A stretch of 39,798 nt of DNA. It comes from an uncultured Candidatus Saccharibacteria bacterium (GTDB taxonomy: Bacteria; Patescibacteriota; WWE3; UBA101185; UBA10185). The notes under the pieces were generated by a model. It was not told the DNA's origin. It ran no database searches and saw only the letters and a program-made list of their open reading frames with translations. The position numbers were made by a program, and so were the translations under genes. The stretch is from the NCBI GenBank assembly GCA_964535155.1, contig CAZHSR010000001.1, forward strand, positions 13,896 through 53,693, given 5' to 3'. Each line of letters begins with the position of its first letter. The first letter of the stretch is position 1. This document shows, one piece after another, positions 18,453 to 39,798 of the stretch.

Positions 18453-18595
18453 AGGGATTATCCTTGGCGGTTTTGGGGGTATAGACTGTTGCAATGGTGC
18501 AAAACCAGGATAGCGTAAAGGATAATCCTTGAGGGGATTCGTATTTCAGACTCTCACTAAAGCCCAAAGCCCTACTCTGTCCAAGGATTATCCTT
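18453..18595. repeat. palindrome array 1: AgGGATTATCCTT 18453-18465, AAGGATAATCCTT 18518-18530, AAGGATTATCCTT 18583-18595
   Basis: Read directly. The start-to-start spacing is exactly 65 bp twice. Confidence 0.9.
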
Positions 18596-18626
18596 AAAAA
18601 ACTTAAAAAAATGTTAAAATTTAGGT

Positions 18627-19085
18627 ATGCACACAAAAGTACAAACAATTTTTCCTTTTTTAATTTCCTTGCTGATTCTGAGCTTTCTAAGTTTTATTTT
18701 TGCAGTCAATAGGACAAATTTTTCCCAATGTAACCAATGCACAAATATAGACCAACCCCAAGAAACCCAAATAATTAACTCATTAGGGGAAGACATTGGG
18801 CAAATGCTAATAGGCACAATTAAAAAGGAAACTATACCAGAAGAACTAGAACTTGGTGACTACTGGTACTGGATGTATTTTGAGCCACAAGCATTACTTG
18901 TAAATAACGCTTTTGGTAATCCCTTATATATAGGCAAAATTCAAATTAATCCGCCAGAGGCCCAAGACATTTATCCAATTGACGATTTTTTGTATAAACA
19001 AGTGGAAGTTTATGGCTATCAAACATGGGGATATGCGGAAAGCTCTGTTTTTCAGGCACTCTCATTAAGAATCTACGAAAAATAG
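18627..19085 (+). CDS. hypothetical secreted/anchored protein (152 aa)
   Basis: An N-terminal hydrophobic segment (IFPFLISLLILSFLSFIFAV), then a soluble domain. Confidence 0.55.
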   Translation: MHTKVQTIFPFLISLLILSFLSFIFAVNRTNFSQCNQCTNIDQPQETQIINSLGEDIGQMLIGTIKKETIPEELELGDYWYWMYFEPQALLVNNAFGNPLYIGKIQINPPEAQDIYPIDDFLYKQVEVYGYQTWGYAESSVFQALSLRIYEK

Positions 19086-19182
19086 CGAAGCATCGTTGTG
19101 AATATCCTCTGTTTCTCTGATATATGAACTTACATATAAGAGCGTGAGTCCATAAAAAGAAGATAAAAAAATAATGGGACTA

Positions 19183-19875
19183 CTAAACAATAGGGGCTAC
19201 ATAAAAAGTAAAGACCCCATCTTCTCCAAGGGTTTTTGCTACACGATTATCATCTATAACCTTGACGTTTAAACCCCGGTCTCGCAAATTCCACACGATA
19301 GTAAGTTTTCTTTCATGATCACCATCTGGGTAAACACCAATTTCTCTAAAATGAGCCTTCACTACTGGGGAAGGAGCTTGCCCGCGACATGAATATAGGT
19401 GAGATGTATCAAAAAAATCAGCTATGGAACCCAACTGATCAGGCATCTCTAATTGCGTATTTAAATCTATTCTATTACTAAGAAGCCCATTGCGGATTGT
19501 TGGAAAATTTCCTCTTAGATATGGGAGTAAAAAAGGAAGAGAGGGCCTAAGTTTCCATTCTAAAACCTCACCACCATCTTCAGCAACTACTGGAAAGTAT
19601 TTTCCTAAAGTATCATCAATATCCCAAAGGACTAAAGGCTCGGGCTCCACAGACCATTTCTCATATGCAGCAACTACTACTTTGCAAAACCCCTTCTCCT
19701 TTTCTAGTGCTTTTTTATAGTCCTCAAGAAGTTCTTCTTTTGTAAGCCAAGATGCATCAGGAGAGATCTCAATTTTTCTCTTTACTTCAAACTCTAACAT
19801 CGGGGATACCCAAGATAAAAATTCATCGGGAGACATGTCTATAGTGGACTCATATTGAGTGGGAGCGATGGACAT
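19183..19875 (-). CDS. HAD-superfamily-like hydrolase
   Basis: DxDxT motif I in LVLWDIDDTLG, a possible motif II LLSNR, and motif IV VIDDN. Confidence 0.45.
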   Translation of the reverse strand: MSIAPTQYESTIDMSPDEFLSWVSPMLEFEVKRKIEISPDASWLTKEELLEDYKKALEKEKGFCKVVVAAYEKWSVEPEPLVLWDIDDTLGKYFPVVAEDGGEVLEWKLRPSLPFLLPYLRGNFPTIRNGLLSNRIDLNTQLEMPDQLGSIADFFDTSHLYSCRGQAPSPVVKAHFREIGVYPDGDHERKLTIVWNLRDRGLNVKVIDDNRVAKTLGEDGVFTFYVAPIV

Positions 19876-19955
19876 AATGAAAATATACCATTTTTTAGAA
19901 AAAACAGAGAAAGGTCTGCGATTGTAGTGCTAGTCATAAAGAGTCATAGAAAGGA

Positions 19956-20033
19956 AAGGATAATCCTTGAGGGGATTCGTATTTCAGACTCTCACTAAAG
20001 CCTAAAACCCCACTCCAGCCAAGGATTATCCTT
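19956..20033. repeat. palindrome array 2: AAGGATAATCCTT 19956-19968, AAGGATTATCCTT 20021-20033
   Basis: 65-bp spacing. The whole 78-bp unit is 72/78 identical to 18518-18595. Confidence 0.9.
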
Positions 20034-21156
20034 AGGAATCCGCGACAACTGATGCCAAAAATGTAGAAATAGGGACAGCCAAAATCAAGCCAGTGCTACC
20101 CAGCAAAGTGCGCAAAACCTCATCCGCTATGATTTCTCGATTAAAAGTAAGCATTAAAGGCTCTGACAGCCCGGGATTATTATTGCTATTGTTATTTAGA
20201 AACAGCAACAACAACGGAAGGGATGCCCCTGCATAAACCAAAACCAAAGTATTCACCATAGAAGTAATGTGATCCCGCCCAATTTCCATGGCACTTTTAT
20301 AAAGCTCAAAAGTCCCCAAGTTGGCATTTGACTTCTTCAACTGCATAACTACGCTACATTGCGAAACAGTAATATCATCCAAAACGCCTAGGAAACCAAT
20401 AATTATTCCTGCCAACAAAATTCCTCGCATATCTATACCGGAAAAATATTCATTTACAAAGAAAGCCTCTTCGGTGGCAAAACCAGACAAACGCGCCAAA
20501 GAGACCGAGACAGCAGTGAAAATTACGGTAATTACCAGGGCCACAAGGGTACTAACAATGGCAACATGCGTCTTTTTGTTGAAGCCGTGCGACAAATAAA
20601 AAGTAACAGGAATAATTGCAACTGAAGCCAATATTGTGACAAATACTGGATTTCTGCCCAAAATTATTTGAGGCAATATAAATTTAAATATTACAAAAAA
20701 GGAAAAAGCCATTCCTAAAATGGAATATAGACCATATTTTTTTCCAACTAAAAAGGTTAATAAGACAAAAATTGCAAATATAAAGGTTAAGTGAGGGGTT
20801 CTATGATAATCGGTTATTAAATAAACTTTCTGAGGGGATTCTGAAGTAGGGGACAAAGTAAGGGACTCCAACTTCATAAATTCCTGCAAAACCACCTTGT
20901 CGCCCTTCTTAAACTCCAGGTTTCTTGCAGAAACTTCGGGAGAATTTTCTACTGTAACAACATCTCCATTGGAAAGCTTAACTTGCAAGGTCTGAATATT
21001 TTGGCCGTCAACTACAACCGATTTTTCTACAGCCACAACTTTTCCGGTTACACTGGAATTGGGAACTTCTTCTAAAGCCAAGACTTTAGGGGCAACAGAA
21101 AATACTGAAAGAACAAAGATAAAGCAAAATAGTATCTTTGAAAAATAATTTTTCAC
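20032..21156 (-). CDS. YibE/F family membrane protein
   Basis: Signal/anchor plus N-terminal soluble domain, then TM bundle with GFLGVLDDITVSQCS and MEIGRDHITSMVNTLVLVYAG signatures. Confidence 0.75.
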   Translation of the reverse strand: MKNYFSKILFCFIFVLSVFSVAPKVLALEEVPNSSVTGKVVAVEKSVVVDGQNIQTLQVKLSNGDVVTVENSPEVSARNLEFKKGDKVVLQEFMKLESLTLSPTSESPQKVYLITDYHRTPHLTFIFAIFVLLTFLVGKKYGLYSILGMAFSFFVIFKFILPQIILGRNPVFVTILASVAIIPVTFYLSHGFNKKTHVAIVSTLVALVITVIFTAVSVSLARLSGFATEEAFFVNEYFSGIDMRGILLAGIIIGFLGVLDDITVSQCSVVMQLKKSNANLGTFELYKSAMEIGRDHITSMVNTLVLVYAGASLPLLLLFLNNNSNNNPGLSEPLMLTFNREIIADEVLRTLLGSTGLILAVPISTFLASVVADS

Positions 21157-21159
21157 TAT

Positions 21160-23337
21160 CTAAGCCTCCTCCACATCCAATGAGACTGACTCCTTATAAA
21201 ACGCCTCCTCCAACCTTGGCCAAGCTGCGGCAAGTCTAGACATCCTAGCCATATTATCTACAAAAACCCGTTTTGCCATTTCCAGCTCTTTTCTTGCCAA
21301 ATCTGGATTTGTGACCTCTTTTTCAAAGGAACTTGCCACCAACCGCATTGCGTTTAAACCAATTCCAAGTCTTGCCCACGCTGGATGTTTGGCAGAAACA
21401 GGCAAATCTGTTTTCGAGTCCAAATAAATACTTTCCCCAAAGGGGTTACCCGCCTGAACTGGGTGCTTTCCTGTAACAATTTCTCCAGTTGTAATGTCAA
21501 TATCTACTCCAATACGCGCCAGACTACGAAGTTTTGTAATTACATCACTGGAATAAGGCTTCCCCTCAGGATCTAAAATCTGAAAAGAAGCAATGGAACT
21601 AAGCTCATATTCCGTGTCTCTGCCAGTTGTTTCCATCCTAATCCTCTCATCCTTTTGGGCATATTCCTGAAAAGCATCCACCAAAAATTGAGTAGCCTTT
21701 GCAAACACCAAGGAATTTTCTGTAGCGTGTGCCTCTTGTGTATTGTGAAGAGCTGCAAACATTCTTGCCATTGTTGACAAATGAACCGCTAAATCGAAAG
21801 TACCCGCCTCGCCAGAAGTTGCCGCCTCACCAAAAATACCTTCCTCACCAGAATTTTTTAACTGCTCAATAAGAGCAGCCTCAATATCTGCGGGCAAAAA
21901 CCCAACCCCAAAATATTCCTGCAACTGTCTTGGATCAAAAACCTCTCCAGAGACAACATCTGTTTTTAATCTTTGAGAAGCACCTTTTGTTCCAACCGCA
22001 TATCCGCCAAATGGGGGACCATCTTCCGCTTTGGAAGTTGTTGCCATAACCCAACCTTCAATATGAGCCTCTTCCATAAGTCTTATAACCTCCGCGGGGG
22101 ATTTCCATCTTCCTTGGGCACAATCAACCACTAATTCAAATTTTCCTCCTTTTGCAAGATATTTTGAAATTACCTCTCTTTGTTCTGCTTCTATTTCAGG
22201 GGATTCTGCTAAAGTCGCTAAATCCAAAGACTTAATAAAGCTATCCATCTCTTTGTAGACAACTCCGCCTTTACCTGGAACTACTATGCTTTGCGTAAAA
22301 GCTAAAAGGACTGTTTCATCTCCTTCCGCTTTTGCGTCATTCTTTTCCAAAAGCTCCTGCATAGTATCAACCATGTATTTGTAATGCATTTTCTTATAGG
22401 TCTCATACTTAATTGGAGTTCCATTTTCATCCCTTACAGGGACATCTCTCACTTCTCTTTTAGCCTTAAGCAAATCTTCAGCCTTTCCACCAGATACACT
22501 TAAAGGCAAAGGCTCCCCTGTAGCTGCAACTTTTACAGTCCTGCCAGCTTCAGTGGACTGGTTTACAATATTTCCATATGTAATTAGGTACCACAAATGT
22601 GTACCAGAGAGGCCTTCAAAAGCTATGTTTTCCTCCGAATTGGGAAGTTCAACAAGGTTGTTTCTTAGCTTATTTGAAATCACGCGAATTGCTTGATTTG
22701 CCTCGGCCTTTTCCTCCGTCTCTTGGGAATTTTTAGCCATTGCCTCCGCACGAGATAAAAATTGTGCCCAATACACAGTGGATAAAAACATCTCACTATT
22801 TCTTGCCAAAGAATTTCCTGTGGTATTTCCCATCATATAGCCTACTCCTCCCATTAATCGGGAAAAATACTCAATTTCTTCAGGCTTAGTTAAAGTAATG
22901 CCAAGGTTTGTGGCATATTCTGTTGCATAGGCTAGATCCTTAAATCTTTCCAAATCCAAAATTCCGTTAAAGTACTGGTCAATTCCCATTGGGTAAGTCT
23001 CAGCTATTGCTTGTCTTAATTCCGGGGATAAACTTGGTGCCTTACCAAGAGGAAATCCATCAACGAGGGGCTTTTCTGTGGCTGTGGATGCAAGAATTGC
23101 GCTCAATTCGTGGGGAACAATTCGCTTGTCATCACTATAAATATAAGTTGTAAAGGCTTCTAATTGGGCAGCATTCCATTCCGATGGGGAGACAGCCTCC
23201 CAAGAGCCTGCCTCAGCCTCTGGTATTGTAATTCCTATTTCTGTTAGCTCCGCAATTATTTCTTGTTGAATTTGCTCATGAATAGGAGAGATTTTTTCGG
23301 CCTTTTTTGACTCAGGCCTTATGGATTCATCAGGCAT
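21160..23337 (-). CDS. large soluble hypothetical protein (725 aa)
   Basis: Uninterrupted 2.2-kb ORF tightly coupled to the yibE/F-like gene. No motif recognised. Confidence 0.8.
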   Translation of the reverse strand: MPDESIRPESKKAEKISPIHEQIQQEIIAELTEIGITIPEAEAGSWEAVSPSEWNAAQLEAFTTYIYSDDKRIVPHELSAILASTATEKPLVDGFPLGKAPSLSPELRQAIAETYPMGIDQYFNGILDLERFKDLAYATEYATNLGITLTKPEEIEYFSRLMGGVGYMMGNTTGNSLARNSEMFLSTVYWAQFLSRAEAMAKNSQETEEKAEANQAIRVISNKLRNNLVELPNSEENIAFEGLSGTHLWYLITYGNIVNQSTEAGRTVKVAATGEPLPLSVSGGKAEDLLKAKREVRDVPVRDENGTPIKYETYKKMHYKYMVDTMQELLEKNDAKAEGDETVLLAFTQSIVVPGKGGVVYKEMDSFIKSLDLATLAESPEIEAEQREVISKYLAKGGKFELVVDCAQGRWKSPAEVIRLMEEAHIEGWVMATTSKAEDGPPFGGYAVGTKGASQRLKTDVVSGEVFDPRQLQEYFGVGFLPADIEAALIEQLKNSGEEGIFGEAATSGEAGTFDLAVHLSTMARMFAALHNTQEAHATENSLVFAKATQFLVDAFQEYAQKDERIRMETTGRDTEYELSSIASFQILDPEGKPYSSDVITKLRSLARIGVDIDITTGEIVTGKHPVQAGNPFGESIYLDSKTDLPVSAKHPAWARLGIGLNAMRLVASSFEKEVTNPDLARKELEMAKRVFVDNMARMSRLAAAWPRLEEAFYKESVSLDVEEA

Positions 23338-23367
23338 ATAAAAATTGTAACATAGACCCAGAGTCTT

Positions 23368-23510
23368 AAGGATAATCCTTGTGGGGAATCATACTATTGA
23401 TCACAATATAGAGCAAAAATAAGTACTGGGTCAAGGATAATCCTTAGAGAAATTGGCACTTTAGACTATTAATAAAATCTAAACCCTTGCTTTAGGCAAG
23501 GATTATCCTT
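23368..23510. repeat. palindrome array 3: AAGGATAATCCTT 23368-23380 and 23433-23445, AAGGATTATCCTT 23498-23510
   Basis: Read directly; exact 65-bp register. Sits in a divergent intergenic region. Confidence 0.9.
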
Positions 23511-23527
23511 CATGCTAAAATTGACCT

Positions 23528-24664: not shown

Positions 24665-24673
24665 AATGCAAGA

Positions 24674-26226: not shown

Positions 26227-27267
26227 ATGTATAATCCCATAATGAAGGAAAATTCAGATACAAATCTTGGATTTTGGGCGGAGCTTAAAAAAACAAAAAA
26301 GCCATTTTTGGCTTTAGCACCAATGGAAGATGTCACAGATTTTGCTTTTAGAGAAATTTTGGCAGAAACCGCTCCCCCCGATGTATTTTTTACCGAATTC
26401 ACAAATGCAGACGGCTTAATGTCCGCAGGAAGGGAAACTGTTATTAAGCGATTGATGTATTCCGAAAAGCAAAGGCCTATTGTGGCTCAGTTGTGGGGAA
26501 ATAATCCAGAAACCATGCGAGGTGCTGCGACTTTGGTTGCTGAGCTAGGGTTTGATGGAATAGACATAAACATGGGTTGCCCAGATAAATCGGTTGTGAA
26601 AATTGGGGCTGGGTCGGCTTTAATTGAGAATTGGGATTTGGCAAGGGAGTTGATTTTAGCTGCAAAGGAGGGGGCGAAAATTGGCGAGGCGGAAAACCTT
26701 CCAGTGAGCGTTAAGACTAGAATTGGCTTTAACAAAATCGTAACAGAAGAATGGGCAGAATTCCTGCTAAATCAGGGAATTGCCTGTTTGACAGTTCACG
26801 GGCGGACCAAAAAACAGATGTCAAAAGTGCCTGCTAATTGGGAAGAAATAGGAAAAGTTGCAAAGGTACGGGATGAAATGGGAGTTGAGACTTTGATTGT
26901 GGGAAATGGCGATGTGGAAAGCTGGGAAGATGCTGGGGGAAAGGCTGAGGAATTTGGGGTGGATGGTGTAATGATTGGAAGGGGGATTTTTAGTAACCCT
27001 TGGATCTTTGAAAAGGAAGGTGCAAAAAAACATTCGGTTTGTGAAAGTGAAAAAACCAGACACTCTGTTGAAGAACATTTAAATTTATTGCTAAAACACA
27101 CACAATTATTTGAAGAAACATGGGGAAAAGAGAAGAATTTTGCCATTATGAAAAAGTTTTTTAAAATTTATGTAAGAGGTTTTGATGGCGCAAATGAATT
27201 GAGGCAAAGGCTGATGGAATGTGGGTCTTTTGAGGAAATCCAAAGGATAATCCTTAATCAAAAGTAG
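26227..27267 (+). CDS. dus: tRNA-dihydrouridine synthase
   Basis: LAPMEDVTDFAFR, DINMGCP, VKTRIG and TVHGRT motifs of the Dus TIM barrel. The C-terminal codons (QRIILNQK*) run into palindrome 27243-27255. Confidence 0.85.
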   Translation: MYNPIMKENSDTNLGFWAELKKTKKPFLALAPMEDVTDFAFREILAETAPPDVFFTEFTNADGLMSAGRETVIKRLMYSEKQRPIVAQLWGNNPETMRGAATLVAELGFDGIDINMGCPDKSVVKIGAGSALIENWDLARELILAAKEGAKIGEAENLPVSVKTRIGFNKIVTEEWAEFLLNQGIACLTVHGRTKKQMSKVPANWEEIGKVAKVRDEMGVETLIVGNGDVESWEDAGGKAEEFGVDGVMIGRGIFSNPWIFEKEGAKKHSVCESEKTRHSVEEHLNLLLKHTQLFEETWGKEKNFAIMKKFFKIYVRGFDGANELRQRLMECGSFEEIQRIILNQK

Positions 27268-27385
27268 ATTTAAGCTCATACCCTAGGGTAAAAACCCCCC
27301 TTTTAAGAAGGATTATCCTTAACATAAACTCAGATATAAACTATAACAAAAGCCTAAAGTGCAGATGTTCACAAGGATTATCCTT
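27243..27385. repeat. palindrome array 4: AAGGATAATCCTT 27243-27255, AAGGATTATCCTT 27308-27320 and 27373-27385
   Basis: Read directly; exact 65-bp register. Confidence 0.9.
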
Positions 27386-27416
27386 AATCATTATAAAAAT
27401 AGGTTATAATACCGCC

Positions 27417-28916
27417 ATGAAATGGATAAACTTTTTACACTTTTACCAACCTGCCAACCAACAAAAAGACATCTTGGAAGCTGTTGTTAAGCAGAGTTAC
27501 TTACCAATTTTGCAGAAAATCGCAGAACTTCCTAATGTAAACCTTTCCATAAATGTTACCGGTTCTTTATTGGAACTATTTGAAAGGGATGGGTATAACG
27601 ACCTCTTAAATCTTTTGAGAAAATCGGTTAAGGAAGGAAAAATTGAACTTACGGGCTCTTGTAAATTTCATGCACTTATTCCACTAATTCCTGAAGAAGA
27701 AATAAAACGACAAATTCTGCAAAATCAGGAAACAATCAACAATATTTTGGGATTTGAATATAAACCAAAGGGATTTTTTCCCCCAGAAATGGCTTATCAT
27801 CCAAAACTTGACAAAATCATTGAAGAGATGGGATTTGAATGGATCATTATGGATGAAATTGCGCTTTCCCATAATGGGAATTTCCCAGTTTCTGACCGTA
27901 TTTACAAGCTTGACGATACAGATATTTCGATATTTTTTAGGAATCGCCGTGCCAGTAACTTAATCATGAGTGCGGTCGCAAGAGATACAAAAACTATTAA
28001 ACAAGCTTTAGCAGAAGAATTTAAACAGCCTTATTTAGTAACCGGAATGGATGGCGAAACTTTTGGGCATCATAGAATTGGTTTTGAAAAGCTTTTATTT
28101 GAAATTTTGGAGGATGAGAGTTTGGGGGTCACAAGTGGGGAAACGTTTTTAGAAGGCGAAGCAGATAAACTTCCAGTGGAAAAAGTGACACCAAAACCTT
28201 CCACATGGGCAAGCAGCATTCAAGATATTGAACAGGGAATTCAGTTTTTGTCTTGGAGAGACCCAGAAAACCCAATTCACGATCAGCAATGGGAATTTTT
28301 GGACATGGTTTTAAAAATGGTGCAAGACTACACAAAAAATGCGGAAAATTATGAGCAAATTAGGCACAAAATGGATATGGCTTTGGCTAGTGATCACTTT
28401 TGGTGGGCTTCGGCAAAGCCTTGGTGGAGCCTAGAAATGATTGAAGATGGCGCTTTTAGGCTTTTGGATGTGGTCTTGTCTTTGGAAAAAGTTTCGGAGA
28501 ATGTGATTTTTACAGCTTACAAGCACTACATGGGGATTGTTTCTAAAGCAGCCGAGTGGCAACGACAGGGAATTGTTAGAGAAATGGCTGTTCAGCAAAA
28601 TCAGTTTTTAAGGATTCCTTTTAAGGACCGCACATTTGGAATTGGCGGAGTAGAAGAAGGGGTTTATTGGGCATTCATCGATTTGATGAAGGAACAAGAA
28701 AAAGTGGCAGCAAATAATGGAGATTATGAAAAGGCTATTTTATGGCGAGATGCAATTTATAAGCTGGATAAGAAGTTTGACATTTATGACACGATTAATG
28801 TTATTGACCTTTTACGACTGGAAGTGGGAAACGGCCCAGTGGAGGAGACCATTGCCAGGTATAAGAAGCAGTATGACAAATTGCGCGGGGGTCAGCCGGA
28901 ACAACGAGGTGCTTAA
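27417..28916 (+). CDS. glycoside hydrolase family 57-like enzyme
   Basis: GH57-type conserved regions in order: HFYQP, GKIELTGS, FFPPEMAY, MDGETFGHH. Confidence 0.65.
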   Translation: MKWINFLHFYQPANQQKDILEAVVKQSYLPILQKIAELPNVNLSINVTGSLLELFERDGYNDLLNLLRKSVKEGKIELTGSCKFHALIPLIPEEEIKRQILQNQETINNILGFEYKPKGFFPPEMAYHPKLDKIIEEMGFEWIIMDEIALSHNGNFPVSDRIYKLDDTDISIFFRNRRASNLIMSAVARDTKTIKQALAEEFKQPYLVTGMDGETFGHHRIGFEKLLFEILEDESLGVTSGETFLEGEADKLPVEKVTPKPSTWASSIQDIEQGIQFLSWRDPENPIHDQQWEFLDMVLKMVQDYTKNAENYEQIRHKMDMALASDHFWWASAKPWWSLEMIEDGAFRLLDVVLSLEKVSENVIFTAYKHYMGIVSKAAEWQRQGIVREMAVQQNQFLRIPFKDRTFGIGGVEEGVYWAFIDLMKEQEKVAANNGDYEKAILWRDAIYKLDKKFDIYDTINVIDLLRLEVGNGPVEETIARYKKQYDKLRGGQPEQRGA

Positions 28917-29057
28917 GGATAATCCTTTAGCATAATACCATTATTGGCTTTCATACAAACGAAATGTACGCTTTCCGACAAGGATTATCCTTAGCTACTT
29001 TAGTACTTTCTGGCTTTGTAAAAAGGCGAAACCTAGTTTTGGACAAGGATTATCCTT
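28915..29057. repeat. palindrome array 5: AAGGATAATCCTT 28915-28927, AAGGATTATCCTT 28980-28992 and 29045-29057
   Basis: Read directly; exact 65-bp register. Sits between convergent genes and overlaps both gene ends. Confidence 0.9.
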
Positions 29058-31735: not shown

Positions 31736-31746
31736 TTCTATAACTT

Positions 31747-33145: not shown

Positions 33146-33214
33146 CTTGTAATCTTTTAAAGGTTATCCCTTAATCGTTTTAGAAGCCTAAATTCTATTT
33201 AAGAGTAAAATAGC

Positions 33215-33297
33215 AAAAAACAAAAAAGCCCTTGGTCTCCCAAGAGCTTTCCTGCCATCCTCTCTTTACTTATGATTAACATAAGAGAAGCATCGAC
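33215..33297 (-). ncRNA. candidate small RNA A (hairpin + GNRA-looped intrinsic terminator)
   Basis: On the minus strand: TGGTAAAAT extended -10 (complement of 33304-33312), hairpin 33269-33285, and terminator stem 33228-33247 (a G-U pair forms only on the minus strand, loop GAGA) followed by U6-G-U6. No ORF larger than 7 codons. Confidence 0.3.
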
Positions 33298-33323
33298 ATG
33301 GTTATTTTACCAAATATGTAGCG

Positions 33324-33394
33324 AACAAAAAAGCCTCTGTATAAACAGAGGCTTTCTTGCATCCAACACTGAAAATTCAGTGGGGCCTTGACAT
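33324..33394 (-). ncRNA. candidate small RNA B (paralogue of A)
   Basis: On the minus strand: TAAAAT (complement of 33401-33406), hairpin 33367-33382, and terminator 33331-33354 followed by a U-run. It shares the GGATG(G)CA(G/A)GAAAGC linker with unit A. Confidence 0.3.
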
Positions 33395-33458
33395 AAGATG
33401 ATTTTACACTAGATCCCAATATTTATCAAAAATAGTTGAAACTATCCGAATTTATAAT

Positions 33459-33505
33459 AATTTGTAGACCCAACTCTACGAATTTCGCTAAATTTGTAGA
33501 CCCAA
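33459..33505 (+). repeat. 15-bp direct repeat AATTTGTAGACCCAA x2 (33459-33473, 33491-33505), 32-bp period
   Basis: Read directly. Lies upstream of the DGR RT gene. Confidence 0.85.
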
Positions 33506-33507
33506 TG

Positions 33508-33650
33508 AAGGATAATCCTTGCAGGAAATAGAACTTTTGGTGTTAGCAACAGGACAAAGCCCGTTTTTTATGAAGGATTATCCTTGGGCAATATAGCCCC
33601 TTAGACTTTAGCAACAAGCAGAAGTGCGTATTCGGCAAAGGATTATCCTT
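33508..33650. repeat. palindrome array 6: AAGGATAATCCTT 33508-33520, AAGGATTATCCTT 33573-33585 and 33638-33650
   Basis: Read directly; exact 65-bp register. It ends 6 nt before the RT start codon. Confidence 0.9.
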
Positions 33651-33656
33651 TAAGAT

Positions 33657-34838: not shown

Positions 34839-34854
34839 AGTTGGAGCCCAAAGT

Positions 34855-34999
34855 TAAATACTTCCAGGGACGCAACACAACCCGAAACCCGATATTACTA
34901 TTTGCATTACTAGTGTTATTGTTATTGACATTGGAACAACTAGAGTTGCCTAAGATCCTTGCATTAGTTGTATTGTTGGCGGCGGAAGCCCAACTATAT
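34855..34999 (-). repeat. DGR template repeat (TR)
   Basis: About 145 bp homologous to 35817-35962. Its minus-strand frame is rich in AAC/AAT codons (WASAANNTTNARILGNSSCSNVNNNNTSNANSNIGFRVVLRP). Confidence 0.9.
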
Positions 35000-35360
35000 A
35001 GGCAACAAAACAAAAAAGCAAAGTGTCAGGACAAATAACACCCATGTTTGTTAGTCTCTTCACTTTTGCGGTTTAATAAACCCTTTAGAAACCAATCTCA
35101 TATTAACCAATAAACAGAGTATGGTTTCTTGCATAGATCCTCAAAGCTTTTTTAGTTACTCAATCCATATTTATCTGCAATCTTTGGCCTTAAGCCAATT
35201 TATATTGCAGGAAAGAGACCGAAGTATTTTTTGGCCAAGGTTTCTAACCTTGAAACAAAGCTTGCTGTTAGGCTGGCTTTGTTACACTTTTGAGCCGTTT
35301 AAGGGTCTTTTAAACTAGTTCAAAATTCTGGCCAGGGCGATGAGTGGGCAAATAGAAGGA

Positions 35361-35699
35361 CTAGGACGATTTTATCCAGCCTCCTAACATTTTACCCACC
35401 TCATCTACATATTTTGAAAGAACTTCATATTTTTTAACACCTATTATTTTTAAACCAAAACATAACCGAATGTAAATACGCATACGGTCTAAATGTGTAT
35501 TTGCTTTCTTTAAATGGGGCTTTTTGTTAATTTCAGAATTGGCAATAATTATACAGTCTAAAAATTCCAAACAGGCTGTCTGTAGGCTTTGTCCCAGGCT
35601 ATATCTATATTCTTTTGGAAATTTATGTATTTCTTTATATATTCTAAGAAGAAGATCATAAGATTTTTGAAAGATGGTAAGTTGTGTATATTGTGCCAT
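35361..35699 (-). CDS. avd: Avd accessory variability determinant (four-helix-bundle family)
   Basis: 112 aa. IFQKSYDLLLRIYKEIHKFPKEYRYSLGQSL...LDRMRIYIRLCF...VGKMLGGWIKS fits the Avd / 23S-rRNA-IVS four-helix-bundle pattern. It lies between the target gene and TR. Confidence 0.8.
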   Translation of the reverse strand: MAQYTQLTIFQKSYDLLLRIYKEIHKFPKEYRYSLGQSLQTACLEFLDCIIIANSEINKKPHLKKANTHLDRMRIYIRLCFGLKIIGVKKYEVLSKYVDEVGKMLGGWIKSS

Positions 35700-35712
35700 A
35701 AAAATTTTTTGC

Positions 35713-35800
35713 GTTCTTTGCTACGCAAAGAACTTGGTTCAAGCCTTTGGCTTGAAAACCTTTTGCTTTGCAAAAGGTTATGCAGCCACTACGTGGCTGC
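35713..35800. other. four tandem perfect stem-loops, each with a 3-nt loop (35713-35733, 35738-35756, 35757-35779, 35782-35800)
   Basis: Stems of 9, 8, 10 and 8 bp with no mismatches. Plus-strand loops are TAC, TTT, TTT, TAC. The array lies between the VR end and the avd start. Confidence 0.85.
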
Positions 35801-35816
35801 TCAAATGAGCAGAGTC

Positions 35817-35962
35817 TAAATACTTCTCAGGGACGCAACACAACCCGAAACCCGATAGTACTACCAGCACCACTAGCGCTATTGAGAAAGACAAGGGAAC
35901 AACTAGAGTAGCCTAAGATCCTTGCATAAGTAGTATTGTAGGCGGCGGAAGCCCAACTATAA
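35817..35962 (-). repeat. DGR variable repeat (VR) at the 3' end of the target gene
   Basis: With TR coordinate + 963 = VR coordinate, there are 18 mismatches. All fall at plus-strand T in TR, which is A on the coding strand. Confidence 0.9.
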
Positions 35963-36801
35963 TTAGTATCACCGTCGTTGCATGTCTTCCTGTTAGCATA
36001 AAATAACCCCCCGTAACAGGCCAAGGGATAGTCATTACTTGAGTGTTGCTCACAGGCATTTTGGAAATCATTACCTACACTCGTACTGGACGCGTAATAT
36101 GGCAAAGCAGACTTACTTCCTGTTGCCAAAGCCCATGTTGCTAAAGAGGCATTTACTGCAGCTAAATCAGCACCCAAACAGCCATTCCCAGTACATAAAT
36201 CTCTGGTGCCGTCTAAACAATCGGAAATTGCCAATGCAGAAATACTGCTATACCCAGCCGAACCATTATGAGAACTGGTTATGGTTACACTATTTACACT
36301 AGAAACCAACTTGTACCACTGACCAGCTGACGCTGCTATCATTCGGTCCTTGAGTGCGGGAACATCACTGGCGCAAGTGTAAGCCCCGGGGTTATCAACA
36401 TCATCTCCAACCCCTTTATTCCAGCTCACAGTGTCTGCCAAAGTCTTAGACCAGCAGGCACCTCTTCCGTTGGTTTCGTACCAATACCAACCAGAGATTG
36501 AGTTGCAGTTACATTCGGTTAAAGTGGACCAAGTAGCTTCTGATAATAAGACCTGACCATTACAAATTGTCATATCAACTTTGGAGGCAATTTGTTCTGG
36601 ATCGTTAAAGTCTTCCGTAACGGAAAGGGAAACGGCGCGGGCAACAAGGGTTAAAATGGAAATTGTGGCAATTAAAACGGTGGCTACTATTGTGCCAAGG
36701 ATTATTCGGGATTTTTTTGTGGCGGGGAGGGCACGGAGGGAAGTGGGCAAGGTGGTAAGGGGGATTTTGCTAAATATTTTTGTAAGTTTTTTTAAGGGCA
36801 T
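35827..36801 (-). CDS. DGR target (variable) protein: N-terminal TM anchor, Cys-rich ectodomain, C-terminal CLec-type variable region
   Basis: 324 aa. TM segment IILGTIVATVLIATISILTLV. The C-terminus WASAAYNTTYARILGYSSCSLVFLNSASGAGSTIGFRVVLRP aligns with the TR frame. Confidence 0.9.
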   Translation of the reverse strand: MPLKKLTKIFSKIPLTTLPTSLRALPATKKSRIILGTIVATVLIATISILTLVARAVSLSVTEDFNDPEQIASKVDMTICNGQVLLSEATWSTLTECNCNSISGWYWYETNGRGACWSKTLADTVSWNKGVGDDVDNPGAYTCASDVPALKDRMIAASAGQWYKLVSSVNSVTITSSHNGSAGYSSISALAISDCLDGTRDLCTGNGCLGADLAAVNASLATWALATGSKSALPYYASSTSVGNDFQNACEQHSSNDYPLACYGGLFYANRKTCNDGDTNYSWASAAYNTTYARILGYSSCSLVFLNSASGAGSTIGFRVVLRP

Positions 36802-36869
36802 GTTTCATTAAAATATACACTTCTGTACATTTTATTGCAACCTAAATAAAAACTGGTGTATCAAATAAG

Positions 36870-36905
36870 AGATAATTGACACAGAAGGTAATTATCTAGT
36901 ATAAT
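36870..36905 (+). promoter_or_regulatory. candidate promoter of abiEi-2 (TTGACA-18-TATAAT, near-leaderless) overlapped by inverted repeat AGATAATT-N12-AATTATCT
   Basis: -35 at 36876-36881 and -10 at 36900-36905, with the ATG at 36912 only 6 nt after the -10. Inverted-repeat arms at 36870-36877 and 36890-36897. Confidence 0.5.
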
Positions 36906-36911
36906 CTACAC

Positions 36912-37661
36912 ATGGAAGACATAAAAATTATTGAACTTGTCCTTATAAAAAAAGGCCGAATTGTAACAAATGCAGCATTAAGCAAATATCTAGGTACATA
37001 TATAGATGTAAACAAAAAAATTTCCTCGCTTATAAAAAAAGGATTTTTGGTGAAACTAAAAAAAGGGACTTATTACATTGCTAAATTAGGAAGTTTAAGC
37101 TACATCTCTATATCCAACTACCTAATAGCAAATATTATAGGGGAGAAGTCCTTTGTTTCTTTTGAAGCAGCCCTAAAATTCCATGGGCTATTTGACCAGG
37201 GGATTAGTAAATATAGGTCTATCTCATTAAAGCAATACTTAACCAAAAATTTGGAGGGAATAAGCTATGAATACATAAAAGTTAAGCAGAATCAGTATTT
37301 TGGGTTTAATCTTGAAAGAGTTGATGGGGGAAACGCGGAAATTGCTACAAAGGAAAGGGCACTATTGGATCTTCTTGAATATAAAAGGTCCATTAGTACT
37401 GTAAGTTTAGTTTTGGAAAAATTAAGCACATATAAATCGGAGATTAATTTTAGTCTGTTAAACGAATATGCGGAAAATTATTCGCAGACGACAATAAAAA
37501 TATTAGGTTTATTACTGGATATTTTAGAGATTGATAGCAAGGATTTGGAGGGGTTAATTAATAAAAAATCAACTTCTCGCATGCTAAAGGATTCCGATAA
37601 ATTCAGTAATAAATGGAGACTTTATTACAACTCTATATTGGAAAATCAAATTAATGATTGA
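36912..37661 (+). CDS. AbiEi-family type IV antitoxin (copy 2)
   Basis: ISSLIKKGFLVKLKKGTYYI wHTH region, SFVSFEAALKFHGL and ATKERALLDLLEY. Overlaps the toxin gene by 8 nt. Confidence 0.75.
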   Translation: MEDIKIIELVLIKKGRIVTNAALSKYLGTYIDVNKKISSLIKKGFLVKLKKGTYYIAKLGSLSYISISNYLIANIIGEKSFVSFEAALKFHGLFDQGISKYRSISLKQYLTKNLEGISYEYIKVKQNQYFGFNLERVDGGNAEIATKERALLDLLEYKRSISTVSLVLEKLSTYKSEINFSLLNEYAENYSQTTIKILGLLLDILEIDSKDLEGLINKKSTSRMLKDSDKFSNKWRLYYNSILENQIND

Positions 37662-38424
37662 TTTAATAACTAGAGAGCAATTGGAATACACCGCCAAATC
37701 GGTATTAAATTATCCCTTACATGATGCCGAAAAAGATTATTTTCTGACACAAGTCATGAAAGTGGTTTCAGAATCATCATTATCAAATGCCCTCATTTTT
37801 AAGGGGGGAACCTCTATATATCATTGTTATCTAGACCAATTAAGATTTTCTGAGGACTTGGATTTTACTGCAATTGATAAAGACATATGCATAGAGGAAA
37901 TTAGGGAGATTTTTGACAAATTGGCTATGTTTGAATTTAAGAAAGAGTATGAATCCACTGCTACAATAAAGATTGAAAGGTTAAAGTATTACGGTATTCT
38001 TGACACTCCAAATAGCATAAAGTTTGAGGTGGATAGAATGCAAAATGTGATATTACCCACAGTCCATAGGCAGTATAAAAATGTGTGGGATTTAGACTTT
38101 TCCGTAAATGTAATGGATCCTGTGGAGATATGTGCAGAAAAATTGCGGGCTTGTAATGACAGGTTTAGATATAGAGATTTTTATGATTTATATATGATGA
38201 TAACCAAGCTAAATATAAACATTAAAAACTCCATATCCCTGATACCCCAAAAGGAAATCAGAAAGCCCTTTTCCAAGGAAAACATTTTAAGAAATTTTGC
38301 TTTAGCATTAAATGAAATCTCAATGGAAGCTGATACGGTTACATATAAAGAAGTTCTGAATACTGAGATTTTGAAAAAATTCTTTGAAGAGTTGAATTTA
38401 TCTCCACTTCAACCTAATGTTTAA
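37654..38424 (+). CDS. AbiEii/AbiGii (DUF1814) nucleotidyltransferase toxin (copy 2)
   Basis: FKGGTSIYHCYLDQLRFSEDLDFT hallmark motif, plus a later YRDFYDLY motif. Confidence 0.85.
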   Translation: MIDLITREQLEYTAKSVLNYPLHDAEKDYFLTQVMKVVSESSLSNALIFKGGTSIYHCYLDQLRFSEDLDFTAIDKDICIEEIREIFDKLAMFEFKKEYESTATIKIERLKYYGILDTPNSIKFEVDRMQNVILPTVHRQYKNVWDLDFSVNVMDPVEICAEKLRACNDRFRYRDFYDLYMMITKLNINIKNSISLIPQKEIRKPFSKENILRNFALALNEISMEADTVTYKEVLNTEILKKFFEELNLSPLQPNV

Positions 38425-38459
38425 ATATAAAAAGACCACATTACCATTACTTGGGTTTT

Positions 38460-38505
38460 GAGTACACTCCAAATTTTTGTTGATTTTTCTGGAGTACACT
38501 CCAAA
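38460..38505 (+). repeat. 14-bp direct repeat GAGTACACTCCAAA x2 (38460-38473, 38492-38505), 32-bp period
   Basis: Read directly. Lies upstream of the large secreted-protein ORF. Confidence 0.85.
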
Positions 38506-38552
38506 GTAAAGTATAGATTGGTAGACAAATTTTTTATTGATATACTTAACCC

Positions 38553-39798
38553 ATGTTTCGAGGATTCTCCTGGGTTCTGCCCATTAATAAAAGATTTAGG
38601 TACAAATGTCATCGTTTTTTGATAAGGCCCCTTGTGGCTATTGCTTTGATAACAGTCTTTACCCAAGGATTATCCTTGGCATTTGCAGCCACATACACCT
38701 CAACTGGAACACTCACTTCAAGTAATTTGCTTTCGGGAATTGGCGTATCTTCCATTGACGCCTTTGGATACAACTTAAATTCCCTTCCAGCTGGGACAAC
38801 AGCACAAGTGCAATTTTCCAATGACAATTCCACTTGGTATAGTTCTGCAGGAGTACAAGGCGCCTGGGACACACTTTCACAAGGGGACTTCACATTGGAA
38901 GAAGACGCCATCTCCCTAGCAACATTAGGCTGGTCTGACAATATTTTTTATTACAAGATTCAAATGGATACTTCTGACACAAGTGCAACCGCCACATTAA
39001 CCGAAATAGTGCTTTATTATGCACCTGGTGCATCGGCTGAAACCTTGGATCCTACATATGTTAAGCCAACATCTGCTACAGCTAATGGAGAAATAGATGC
39101 AATTACAGGGGGAAACGCAACGCAAAGGGGATTTCAATATGGCTTAACGGAAACTGCAACCTGGGAAACCAGCGAAACAGGAGATTTTGGGGAAGAAGAA
39201 TATTCGCTGGAAATTACGGGTCTAACCCCAAATACAACTTATTACATAAGGGCTTTTGCAACAAATCCAGAGGGCACAACTTATGGAACCTGGGAACCCT
39301 TTACCACCAGTGAATACGCCACAACTGGTACACTTACTTCCAGCAACATTTTGGACGGCGAAACCGTGGAAGTTATTACCGAATTTGAATACAGCATGTC
39401 AACCATGCCAAGCGGAGCCTCTGCCACAATTCAGTTTAGCGAAGACGGAACCAACTGGTACAACTCCACAGGCGTTTTAAACGGCACCGACGAGCTTTAC
39501 GCCTTAAAAGAAAACAGCGACAGGAACAAAATTAGCCTTTGCGAATTACGCTGGCGAGAACCCACCTTTTACTACAAAGTCCAGTTTACATCCAGTGCCA
39601 GTGGCGACACTCCAGTTTTGGACAGCATCAATGTCACTTATGACGATGAAAATTACACTTGCGGCCCCATTGCTCACTGGAAATTAGACGAGGGTCAAGG
39701 GGTCTCTGCCTATAACAGCGTGGCTTCTGAGGACAGGCAAAGTGCGGGGGCTACTTCGGCACATACTGGGACAATTTCTGGCGCCACCTGGCAAGAAG
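38553..39798 (+). CDS. large secreted/surface protein, 3' end beyond the window (signal peptide, two ~115-aa repeat modules flanking an FN3-like module, start of a LamG/ConA-like domain)
   Basis: Own translation in the frame with codon starts divisible by 3: open from 38550 to the window end. MFRGFSWVLPINKRFRYKCHRFLIRPLVAIALITVFTQGLSLAFAATYTSTGTLTSSNLL...GLTPNTTYYIRAFATNPEGTTYG...YATTGTLTSSNILDG...HWKLDEGQGVSAYNS. The start is uncertain (ATG 38553 or TTG 38619). It is missing from the ORF track because no stop lies in the window. Confidence 0.7.
   Translation, partial: MFRGFSWVLPINKRFRYKCHRFLIRPLVAIALITVFTQGLSLAFAATYTSTGTLTSSNLLSGIGVSSIDAFGYNLNSLPAGTTAQVQFSNDNSTWYSSAGVQGAWDTLSQGDFTLEEDAISLATLGWSDNIFYYKIQMDTSDTSATATLTEIVLYYAPGASAETLDPTYVKPTSATANGEIDAITGGNATQRGFQYGLTETATWETSETGDFGEEEYSLEITGLTPNTTYYIRAFATNPEGTTYGTWEPFTTSEYATTGTLTSSNILDGETVEVITEFEYSMSTMPSGASATIQFSEDGTNWYNSTGVLNGTDELYALKENSDRNKISLCELRWREPTFYYKVQFTSSASGDTPVLDSINVTYDDENYTCGPIAHWKLDEGQGVSAYNSVASEDRQSAGATSAHTGTISGATWQE
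38665..38677. repeat. solo AAGGATTATCCTT palindrome
   Basis: Read directly. It lies inside the predicted signal-peptide coding region (TQGLSLA) of the 38553-39798 ORF. Confidence 0.9.

Follow-up and report, generated by a model that had tools for sequence, protein, structure and literature searches.

Which kind of element places a 13-bp palindrome in strictly phased mini-arrays at six separate loci of one bacterial DNA? The question was raised by a first-pass annotation, in which the element was described and left without a name. The stretch analysed here, 39.8 kb in length, is called the window. The host is a CPR/WWE3-like bacterium.

Palindrome arrays and their gene context

The palindrome AAGGATWATCCTT was recounted in the window, and 17 exact copies and one 12/13 copy were found at exactly the coordinates listed before (Table 1). 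The count expected by chance is 0.12, with a maximum of 1 in 100 dinucleotide shuffles, against the 18 copies observed; the number is thus well above composition level. The start-to-start distance is 65 bp in all 11 intra-array intervals, as had been reported. The 65-bp module is composed of an invariant 13-bp palindrome, AAGGAT-W-ATCCTT, and a 52-bp spacer. A complete unit (palindrome-spacer-palindrome) is 78 bp long. Its terminal inverted repeats are 13-14 bp, AAGGATAATCCTT(G) ... (C)AAGGATTATCCTT, where the 14-mer form has n = 11. The bases beside the palindrome show a partial C/G at -1/+1 only and are otherwise unconserved. The modal array has three palindromes (143 bp), which is the form of five of the six arrays in the window and of an array in a WWE3 MAG (L001).

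Table 1. Palindrome arrays and related features, in window coordinates
Feature	Position	Strand	Palindromes and content	Setting
Array 1	18453..18595	+	18453 (AGGGATTATCCTT, the 12/13 copy), 18518, 18583; two 52-bp spacers	between divergent ABC-F 16960-18411 (-) and ORF 18627-19085 (+)
Array 2	19956..20033	+	19956, 20021; single 78-bp unit	between YibE/F-like 20032-21156 (-) stop and 19183-19875 (-) start
Array 3	23368..23510	+	23368, 23433, 23498; centres A,A,T	between divergent ORFan 21160-23337 (-) and GT4 23528-24664 (+)
Array 4	27243..27385	+	27243, 27308, 27373; centres A,T,T	Dus-GH57 spacer; array end 19 nt upstream of GH57 -10 box
Array 5	28915..29057	+	28915, 28980, 29045; centres A,T,T	fills convergent gap between GH57 and LctP-like gene
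Array 6	33508..33650	+	33508, 33573, 33638; centres A,T,T	array end 6 nt upstream of DGR reverse transcriptase GTG start
Truncated unit	38624..38677	+	spacer remnant and right palindrome 38665-38677; HMM positions 20-78, E 0.008	
Possible decayed solo palindrome (tentative)	33160..33172	+	AAGGTTATCCCTT then AATC, as in array 4	

The centre of every one of the six arrays falls in non-coding DNA, which makes up 16% of the window (p ~ 2e-5). The arrays are confined to 18-39 kb, and comparable intergenic spacers of 1-18 kb carry none (Fisher p = 0.05). Apart from overlaps with gene ends, the arrays are intergenic. At these ends, three genes (Dus, the LctP-like gene and a terminal ORF) take their C-terminal tails and their stop codons from element sequence. 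The Dus tail, QRIILNQK with its stop, is made by the first palindrome of array 4 (27243) and the next 12 bases. The third palindrome of array 5 (29045) encodes RIIL of the LctP-like tail (...RIILVQN, stop), and the first palindrome of the same array (28915) overlaps the GH57 stop codon. On the minus strand, the truncated unit at 38624-38677 encodes the tail KDNPWVKTVIKAIATRGLIKKR, with its stop, of an ORF running towards the window end. The copy at 38665 had been taken for a solo palindrome; it is really the right end of this truncated unit, within the 3' end of the minus-strand ORF.

Spacer homology, orientation and symmetry

The 52-bp spacers had been described as diverged yet homologous, and the comparison bore this out. 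Their mean ungapped identity is 22.7/52 in the forward orientation, against 13.8 ± 3.3 for random 52-mers of the window. With reverse complements it is 20.9/52 on a background of 13.8. The length is always 52 bp, without a single change in 11 units, at a sequence identity of ~43%. The earlier argument that the register was kept while the filler drifted, and hence that a spacing constraint exists, is upheld by this constancy and by the 65-bp phase of two other DNAs (L001 and L002, see below). Direct reading of the sequence confirmed two motifs: WYAGACT, which five units carry at spacer offsets 16-22, and TAGCAACA, present in each of the two array 6 units at offsets 24-31.

All of the 11 units lie in one orientation, and the + strand beats the - strand by 10-34 bits (median ~14) in a profile HMM. 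The AT/GC profile of the spacer is dyad-symmetric (r = 0.70), and the unit of L002 has the same dyad-symmetric profile (r ~ 0.5, p < 0.001). The symmetry is probably the remnant of an ancestral hairpin of ~78 bp. Substitutions in the spacers look neutral; 41% are transitions and W/S-preserving changes are not in excess.

Units within an array are no more similar than units from different arrays. One pair is young: the units 18518-18595 of array 1 and 19956-20033 of array 2 have spacers that are 46/52 identical (88%), with both palindromes in common. Their similarity ends exactly at the palindromes and the flanks are unrelated. The remaining pairs are ~57% diverged while 17/18 palindromes are perfect. 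The 40-bp sequences flanking 11 arrays or loci showed no target-site duplication, direct repeat or shared motif.

Relatives and public data

The element was compared at syntenic sites. In a relative whose GH57 is 80% identical (L005), the Dus-GH57 spacer is 49 bp long and carries no palindrome, against 149 bp with array 4 in the window. No palindrome surrounds GH57 in L007 (GH57 83% identical) or L008 (78%), and that of L008 also lacks one in its upstream spacer. At the array 5 site, the palindrome is absent from L005, L007 and L008. On the other hand, L006 carries at this position a solo variant, CTAGGATAATCCTAG, exactly at the GH57 stop, which is still palindromic through a double change (AA..TT to TA..TA). 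Within its GH57 gene, L006 also has a pair of palindromes that stand in frame at a distance of 63 bp (21 codons; KDYP...KDYP), with centres T,T. Two relatives lack the palindrome throughout 21-kb stretches, and three others lack it in their syntenic spacers.

The element is exceedingly scarce in public data: a scan for the exact 13-N52-13 pattern gave one hit among 185,579 species-representative genomes and one among 241 M metagenome records. L001 has the same palindrome three times at the 65-bp phase, with very different spacers and centres A,A,A, and its source genome (an 864-kb contig) contains a single array in the exact-pair scan. The metagenome contig L002, which is unrelated to L001, likewise has the palindrome, the 65-bp phase and very different spacers. 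The phase thus recurs elsewhere. The unit matched no known REP or MITE family, and blastn against plasmids and phages gave no match. The uniform orientation, the dyad-symmetric fossil-hairpin spacer, the insertion polymorphism and the three element-encoded gene tails had been missed by the first-pass annotation.

Nature of the repeat

The units are homologous, lie in one orientation, were copied as palindrome-to-palindrome blocks and are present or absent between relatives. Their landing sites are intergenic DNA, gene 3' ends and, once, an in-frame position within a gene. Insertion polymorphism, gene-end tails, the in-frame copy and the palindrome-bounded duplication are characteristic of an element that moves or duplicates. 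With a confidence that is about evenly balanced, we read the arrays as a family of small, modular DNA repeats that is restricted to one lineage, is non-autonomous and has its analogues in REPIN/BIME and in the NIME arrays of Neisseria. The family is previously undescribed and belongs to neither of the two.

The ancestor would have been a long hairpin that has stayed perfect over its outer 13-14 bp only. New modules may have been inserted at a pre-existing palindrome; neighbours would then share one palindrome, giving the exact 65-bp phase and arrays of mutually diverged units. Such growth fits the solo palindrome of L006 at the GH57 stop versus the three-palindrome array 5 of the window. Perfect palindromes and the lack of indels, despite neutral-looking decay of the spacer, imply a sequence-specific protein that reads both the palindrome and the spacing. 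The palindrome would be the recognition site of this trans-acting and probably dimeric protein, whose gene presumably lies in another part of the genome. A hairpin-reading transposase or nuclease (Y1/HUH RAYT-like or GIY-YIG Ssn-like) would be the foremost candidate, with a recombinase as the alternative. If the reader needed two sites at a fixed distance, the palindromes would stay perfect and the spacer would remain free of indels while its sequence drifts. In the 39.8-kb window, which covers about 5% of the genome, no gene for a transposase, RAYT (Y1_Tnp), GIY-YIG protein or recombinase was found with Pfam, NCBIfam and PADLOC; the Y1_Tnp search covered all ORFs of at least 80 aa, and the GIY-YIG search took in small ORFs too. 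A parent autonomous IS with matching termini was not found within the window either. The repeat-element reading has other points against it. The single array of L001 is unlike a proliferating element in that genome, at 13 bp the palindrome falls far short of hairpins of the REP, NTS or IS200 type, and a target-site duplication or conserved flank is missing.

REP, BIME and REPIN elements with RAYT transposases occur in Enterobacteria and Pseudomonas (PMC3116915, PMC3337134). In REPINs, two inverted copies stand at a constant distance (71 bp for the GI REPINs of SBW25), and evenly spaced tandem arrays of them are also known (PMC3116915, PMC3337134). The present family resembles them in its short extragenic palindromes (six arrays in the non-coding 16%), in a distance that is likewise constant and in a spacer less conserved than the palindrome. 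The outer centres A...T and the dyad-symmetric composition of the spacer would suit an inverted, hairpin-forming unit of the REPIN kind, but the folding of present-day spacers is no better than that of shuffled ones. Further parallels are clusters that would grow by insertion beside copies already there, a common orientation throughout a chromosomal region and the non-autonomous state. However, the palindrome is perfect and 13 bp long, whereas that of REP is imperfect and ~20-40 nt, and a GTAG-type 5' tetranucleotide is absent. Neighbouring units have one palindrome in common, hence the strict periodicity, and the spacers (~43% identity) are far more diverged than REPIN populations. A RAYT gene, usually flanked by repeats in REP systems, was not among the window ORFs. 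No description of REP/REPIN-type elements in CPR bacteria was found in the literature searched.

Hairpin repeats of Neisseria, dRS3 (consensus ATTCCC-N8-GGGAAT) and NTS (a 28-mer), are grouped near genes and serve as recognition sites for Ssn, a GIY-YIG ssDNA nuclease (PMC11893778). As in NIME arrays, an invariant short palindrome alternates here with members of a diverged repeat family (50-150 bp in NIMEs) around particular genes. The NIME palindrome is read by a small trans-acting protein, Ssn, and that of the present family probably has such a reader as well. The two systems differ in that AAGGATWATCCTT is unlike the dRS3 consensus, RS segments vary in length while the spacer here is always 52 bp, and an Ssn-like gene was not found in the window. 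The unusually strict spacing rule sets the family apart among REP/BIME/NIME-type repeats.

Correia elements are MITEs, and Rickettsia palindromic elements (RPEs) insert in-frame inside protein-coding genes. Terminal inverted repeats, small size, polymorphic insertion between relatives and insertion into gene ends are shared with both, and the in-frame copy inside the L006 GH57 recalls RPEs. Unlike MITEs, the family has no visible target-site duplication and no known parent IS, and its termini are themselves palindromes common to neighbouring copies. Its invariant length despite deep divergence differs from MITEs and RPEs alike.

Among host sites, F sopC consists of tandem 43-bp units, each with a 16-bp palindrome, and the consensus sequences of matS and parS are GTGACRNYGTCAC and TGTTNCACGTGAAACA, respectively. 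A short palindrome at a fixed period in tandem units is reminiscent of sopC; however, sopC units are near-identical and lie at one locus, whereas the present units are mutually diverged at six loci. The resemblance to matS or operator-type sites suggested earlier holds for the form only, a 13-bp dyad with a free central base, and not for the matS consensus. There is no sequence similarity to sopC, matS or parS, no partition genes lie near the arrays, and the occurrence among relatives is patchy. A matS/parS-type site was rejected; the consensus differs, and the palindrome is missing from the stretches and syntenic spacers of the five relatives and nearly absent from species-representative genomes.

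The strongest rival, which we consider possible though doubtful, is that the arrays are cis-acting sites of the host, phased for a dimeric chromosomal protein and held by purifying selection, so that a repeat origin would be history only. The protein could be nucleoid-associated or architectural, a global regulator, centromere-like (sopC/parS-type) or one of a gyrase-type wrapping site. The 17/18 perfect palindromes and the lack of indels beside neutral-looking spacers suit it, as do the modal 143-bp size, the clustering in 18-39 kb and the palindromy kept through a double change at the L006 GH57 stop. So does the identical 13-mer at the same phase elsewhere with essentially unrelated spacers, including a one-array genome. 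A purely selfish family would need many old, still-active lineages; therefore, in-situ purifying selection for a host function is equally simple. AT-rich positions recur every ~10 bp, phased to the palindrome centre, but such a pattern is explained by shared ancestry. Against host sites, the pattern is almost absent from public data and syntenic sites of close relatives are empty, whereas a conserved function should occur across WWE3. Divergent, tandem and convergent spacers are occupied alike, gene tails are overwritten and one copy lies in a CDS, which is unlike designed operators. Moreover, 65 bp is 6.2 turns of B-DNA and gives no integral helical phase. Among the explanations first offered, a REP/BIME-like or MITE-like unit and a phased site for a dimeric protein fit and are mutually compatible; a structured RNA does not.

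An RNA-level element, in which transcribed palindromes pair or fold as mRNA stabilisers, terminators, processing sites or a small-RNA family, is improbable. Each 78-nt unit is predicted to fold as a hairpin closed by a 13-bp stem, and several arrays lie at gene 3' ends. However, RNAalifold returned only the invariant outer stem, with 0/12 pairs covarying, and the covariation test proposed for the unit found 0 compensatory pairs; the stem is invariant across genomes. Compared with shuffled sequences, the spacers show no gain in stability (mean z +0.4/-0.5 under RNA parameters and ~0 under DNA parameters). Rfam gave no match at gathering score in the whole window and none overlapping an array at E<=1. 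Divergent genes flank two of the arrays, and no T-tracts follow the stems. Most units fold more stably on the minus strand (for 19956, -37.0 vs -22.7 kcal/mol), as would be expected if G:U pairs count, and this asymmetry is reversed in L001 and L002. The element acts as DNA, and an RNA function is not supported.

It is very unlikely that the arrays are invertons, whose 52- or 117-bp interior would be flipped by a master invertase at the outer palindromes. The reading draws on the central bases. The reported pattern, A in the first and T in the last palindrome of arrays 2-6, was confirmed (array 1 has T,A,T), and it makes the outer palindromes exact inverted repeats (5/6 arrays, p ~ 0.005 if centres were random). 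The conserved length and the intergenic sites, near gene starts in 5/6 arrays, also agree with it. However, 11/11 interiors have the same orientation and show no enrichment of promoter-like signal, and an interior of 52-117 bp would leave very little length for synapsis. L001 has centres A,A,A and L006 has T,T; no recombinase is encoded nearby, and some copies form part of coding tails.

A CRISPR-like or guide-RNA array is scarcely credible despite its regular layout of repeats and spacers of constant length and the CRISPR repeat near the L002 copies, since it is effectively refuted by spacers that are mutually homologous in one orientation, and a 13-nt repeat is far below any CRISPR repeat (at least ~23 nt expected), there are 1-2 spacers per array at six loci and the window has no cas genes.

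The CRISPR repeat of L002 is a true one and lies 350 bp from its palindromes. In the window, AAGGTTATCCCTT at 33160 stands directly after the AbiEii stop and is not detected by the HMM. Another match to the palindrome with one mismatch lies at 6184, in a coding region outside every array.

Phased palindromes and the 65-bp module

Searched for AAGGATWATCCTT with one mismatch allowed, the window gave 19 sites, where dinucleotide shuffles predict 0.12, and the palindrome family was the only over-represented k-mer family found. All of the 18 sites reported in the first-pass annotation were recovered, and 17 of them carry a perfect palindrome. The 65-bp phase claimed there was confirmed by all 11 start-to-start distances within the six arrays, and the minor motifs WYAGACT and TAGCAACA are present at the offsets it had assigned. 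The copy at 38665, which had been taken for solo, belongs instead to a truncated unit, of which it forms the right end. The central base is polarised: in five of the six arrays the first copy has A and the last has T, and the middle copy has A or T. The inverted repeat reaches 14 bp through the inner flank in many units (AAGGATAATCCTTG / CAAGGATTATCCTT, n = 11). The nineteenth site is a one-mismatch palindrome, AAGGAATATCCTT, within an unannotated 531-aa ORF with no array near; it may have arisen by chance or be a relic.

The 52-bp spacers of the units had been called diverged but homologous. Their mean ungapped identity is 22.7/52, compared with 13.8 ± 3.3 for random 52-mers; they are homologous and deeply diverged. 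There is no indel in the spacers of the window, whose length is constant at 52 bp while the sequence decays. Their relationships are star-like, and pairs from the same array (20–28/52) are not closer than pairs across arrays. There is one young pair, 18518-18595 and 19956-20033, in which 46/52 spacer positions and both palindromes are alike, and the likeness stops exactly at the palindromes. Therefore, the copied unit is the block from palindrome to palindrome. A composite 143-bp element with distinct halves was rejected because the spacers of first and second units are no more alike within each class than between the classes.

The orientation of the units was determined with a profile HMM, in which the + strand scored 10–34 bits (median ~14) above the - strand for every unit of the window. 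Therefore, all 11 units lie in one orientation regardless of the flanking genes. The identity of the spacers with their reverse complements (20.9/52) is likewise above background, their AT/GC profile is dyad-symmetric (r = 0.70), and AT-rich positions recur about every 10 bp with a periodicity significant against shuffles. Because the substitutions do not preferentially keep the W/S class (0.33 versus 0.35 in the null), we read the symmetry and the ~10-bp periodicity as a probable relic of a long hairpin in the ancestor and do not take them to prove current selection on DNA shape. DNA bending or wrapping is unproven, since common ancestry accounts for the AT/GC pattern.

Insertion sites in the window, in relatives and in collections

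The gene content of the window is ordinary for a small genome and includes an ABC-F ATPase, YibE/F, a GT4 glycosyltransferase, Dus, a GH57 glycosidase, LctP-like and MgtE transporters, and two-component proteins. Its G+C content is 34–41% and ~84% of it is coding. The best named relatives of the GH57 protein belong to candidate division WWE3 and other Patescibacteria. All six array centres are non-coding (p ~ 2e-5). The arrays fill the host spacers nearly entirely and extend into gene ends, some of which they encode (see the table). Promoter and terminator scans gave no enrichment linked to the arrays.

Coordinates of the arrays, gene ends and neighbouring features (window positions unless a contig is named)
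Feature	Position	Strand	Remark
Array 1	18453-18595		divergent spacer
Array 2	19956-20033		tandem spacer
Array 3	23368-23510		divergent spacer
Array 4	27243-27385		tandem spacer
Array 5	28915-29057		convergent spacer
Array 6	33508-33650		tandem spacer
Nineteenth site	6184-6196		in 531-aa ORF 5078-6673 (-)
Dus C-terminal tail			QRIILNQK*, element-encoded
LctP-like C-terminal tail			RIILVQN*, element-encoded
Tail of last minus-strand ORF		-	KDNPWVKT...*, element-encoded
GH57 and YibE/F stop codons			each overlapped by a palindrome
-10 box of GH57	27405-27419		6 nt before start codon
-10 box of GT4	23513-23530		6 nt before start codon
-10 box of ORF 18627	18612-18629		6 nt before start codon
DGR, complete	33657-36801		RT, template repeat, bAvd-like gene, variable repeat
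DGR RT	33657-34838	+	DGR-type IGNSTSQ motif
DGR template repeat (TR)	34865-34998	-	strand opposite to RT
bAvd-like accessory gene	35361-35699	-	
DGR variable repeat (VR)	35828-35961		3' end of 324-aa target gene
DGR target gene, 324 aa	35827-36801	-	
AbiEi/AbiEii pairs	31747-33145; 36912-38424		type IV toxin-antitoxin / abortive infection
Mrr-like restriction endonuclease	3219-3749		
725-aa ORF	21160-23337	-	
18-bp tandem repeat, three copies	21798-21853		
32-bp tandem direct repeat	33440-33503		AACTATCCGAATTTATAATAATTTGTAGACCC
TAGACCCA near array 3	23353-23360		8 bp upstream of array 3
RF04180-like matches, two in tandem	33222-33437	-	sub-threshold
In-frame element copy	L006 3137-3212		within GH57 CDS of a relative
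Solo variant	L006 3935-3950		at GH57 stop of a relative
CRISPR-type repeat, two copies	L002 3295-3402		metagenome contig

The GH57 neighbourhood was compared with contigs of relatives that carry a GH57 homologue. In two relatives, whose GH57 is 80 and 71% identical, 21 kb each were free of the palindrome, and GH57 lacks a palindrome on either side in L007 (83%) and L008 (78%). The Dus-GH57 synteny is retained in L005 (80%) with a spacer of 49 bp, compared with 149 bp including array 4 in the window, and in both the conserved GH57 -10 box comes after this spacer. In L006 (78%), a solo variant, CTAGGATAATCCTAG, lies exactly at the GH57 stop, which is the site of array 5 in the window, and keeps its palindromy by a double change. 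This variant supplies both the stop codon of GH57 and the C-terminal residues GLS* of a C5 DNA methyltransferase whose gene is convergent. The same contig has the pair AAGGATTATCCTT / AAGGATTATCCCT in frame within the GH57 CDS at a distance of 63 bp (21 codons), which encodes KDYP...KDYP in a variable loop. The presence/absence pattern among the relatives thus indicates that gain or loss of the element falls within the time over which these lineages diverged. The L006 sites indicate that a palindrome already present can be the starting point of its extension and that it can survive in a gene if its length is a multiple of three.

The exact 13-N52-13 pattern had one match among one-per-species representative genomes of 185,579 species and one match in 241 million metagenome records. 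The former is a WWE3 MAG with palindromes at 4793, 4858 and 4923 upstream of rplJ, and the latter is a metagenome contig (L002) with two palindromes between pyk and a small ORF. The 65-bp phase, whose loss elsewhere the first-pass annotation had named as counter-evidence, is kept in both. The palindrome and the 52-bp length of these two foreign arrays are identical to those of the window, and their spacers are almost unrelated to it; the L002 spacer tracks the AT/GC profile of the window (r ~ 0.5). The element-bearing genomes or bins number four: the source MAG, WJKK01000001.1, the bin of OMKS01019602.1 and JGI 3300062544. L002 also has a variant palindrome, AAGGACTGTCCTT, 4 bp past its array with intact arms and an altered centre, and, ~350 bp from the array, a 37-nt CRISPR-type repeat, GTCAGAGAGGCTTTAATCCCCGTAAGGGGTCGGAAAC, in duplicate.

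Viral contigs had no arrays of fixed or variable spacing. They gave more than 120 single 15-mer matches, none with a phased partner, which by our estimate is about the chance number for a collection of this size. No similar DNA was found in plasmid and phage collections by blastn. No sign of a parent element or of att-site use came from the viral contigs.

Relation to known repeats and a possible mechanism

The members of the family are homologous, agree in orientation and have been duplicated, with palindromic boundaries and presence/absence polymorphism, and the element inserts into spacers, gene tails and one CDS. The palindrome and the spacer length are invariant while the spacer sequence is decaying, in agreement with the earlier inference that the register was held while the filler drifted. 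We regard this repeat family as real and far from random, and class it, as one not described before, among the interspersed palindromic repeat arrays. Its working mode is nearest to that of REPIN/BIME arrays and Neisseria NIMEs, but it is neither of the two. The suggestion of a REP/BIME-like or MITE-like unit held in part. The array mode, the terminal inverted repeats and the insertion polymorphism agree with it. However, the REP hallmarks (an imperfect 20–40-nt hairpin and a GTAG-like tetranucleotide), a target-site duplication and a known parent IS are lacking, and the palindrome does not follow the dRS3/NTS consensus of Neisseria NIMEs. No genes tied to REP or NIME systems were found in the window. 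The element stands apart from known arrays in its very short invariant palindrome, the site common to neighbouring units and the strict 65-bp ruler. To our knowledge, interspersed palindromic repeats (REP, BIME, REPIN, NIME and Correia) have been studied almost solely in Proteobacteria. A literature search on the 13-mer and on such repeats in CPR/Katanobacteria returned nothing relevant, and such elements are not described in candidate-phyla-radiation bacteria in the literature searched.

We propose that 65-bp modules are added at a palindrome already in place. Such addition would produce the shared palindromes, the exact phase, the mutually diverged units of each array and the A...(W)...T centres. 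A trans-acting sequence-specific protein, encoded outside the window, would read the palindrome and require a partner site at a set distance. The survival of the spacer length through near-complete sequence turnover looks like the clear mark of a protein that measures distance, and the invariant stem sequence across genomes points to sequence-specific protein recognition, not to an RNA helix. The uniform orientation of the units spans 20 kb and is independent of transcription. Uniform orientation over a region is an outcome of single-strand (replication-coupled) HUH-type transposition. The tandem REP arrays of P. fluorescens are uniformly oriented as well (PMC3116915), and a further precedent comes from Neisseria, whose dRS3/NTS hairpins are read by the small GIY-YIG nuclease Ssn (PMC11893778).

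There is a tension in these data: 10 of the 11 spacers are old (~57% diverged), yet the palindromes are perfect at all sites except one and the spacers are free of indels. Either the element persists as many old lineages that are still active, or purifying selection operates in place. Purifying selection on palindromes and spacing in situ would mean that the arrays serve, or have come to serve, the host as phased sites for protein binding. This main rival, which is compatible with a mobile origin, draws on the same contrast between intact palindromes and diverged spacers, and we consider it possible but doubtful. A further reading, which we think rather unlikely, takes the arrays as the DNA side of an undescribed CPR protein-DNA system, kept by selection and not debris, with a dimeric reader of AAGGAT-W-ATCCTT as a ruler needing exactly 65 bp. 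Such a reader might add 65-bp modules at an existing site in a cassette-like manner, by hairpin- or palindrome-targeted chemistry unlike that of RAYT, Ssn or classical transposases. Alternatively, it might build a phased nucleoprotein structure on which the host now depends. The study of each well-known kind of palindromic repeat has revealed a dedicated protein (RAYT, Ssn, gyrase/IHF binding) and effects on genome plasticity. CPR genomes are ~1 Mb and streamlined, and the persistence of non-functional DNA in them is unexpected. The reader protein, if identified, would be a new sequence-specific DNA-recognition module and would tell whether selfish DNA is tolerated or put to use in CPR genomes. 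Since the element rewrites host C-termini and can sit in frame in an enzyme, it has an effect on how the proteins of these organisms evolve.

The structured RNA suggested earlier was rejected. Folding of both strands of all units showed that the 13-bp stem can close each of them into a hairpin. A consensus fold, computed from 15 oriented units, kept the invariant outer stem only, with compensatory changes in no pair. The spacers alone were not more stable than shuffles (z-scores with RNA and DNA parameters), and Rfam gave no match over the arrays at the gathering score or E<=1. A CRISPR was excluded by the homologous spacers, the 13-nt repeat and the lack of cas genes. A tie to the neighbouring reverse transcriptase was dismissed because the RT is part of a complete DGR with its own TR/VR, and adenine mutagenesis because the A-rich palindromes are invariant. 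The likenesses to a DnaA box (TTATCC; CACA half absent) and to Shine-Dalgarno/anti-SD sequences (AAGGA/TCCTT; unfit start-codon distances of 7–32 nt) were dropped.

Features neighbouring the arrays

The end of array 6 is 6 nt from the start of the RT, and all TR/VR mismatches are at TR adenines. The two AbiEi/AbiEii pairs lie on both sides of the DGR and, together with the Mrr-like endonuclease, suggest a defence-rich variable region. Arrays 2 and 3 flank the 725-aa ORF and a YibE/F-like gene. This ORF, with its 18-bp tandem repeat, is in the part of the window with the highest G+C (0.40–0.41); it had no homologue at E<=1e-20 besides itself among 5.8 billion proteins and no Pfam/NCBIfam match.

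The -10 boxes (TATAAT / TGnTAAAAT) of GH57, GT4 and ORF 18627 are close to their start codons, and that of GH57 is kept in three relatives (L005, L006 and L008). This suggests that leaderless mRNAs are common in the lineage. In arrays 1 and 4, the end of the last palindrome is exactly 32 nt from the ATG. The 32-bp direct repeat, whose second copy is 78% identical, lies directly upstream of array 6, and its end, TAGACCCA, occurs four times window-wide against 1.1 expected. The two RF04180 matches (Bacteroides sRNA BTnc231; 31.5 and 23.7 bits, gathering score 80.4) sit in a 500-bp spacer with two strong terminator-like hairpins. Between AbiEii and the DGR there may thus be a pair of small RNAs that is not annotated.
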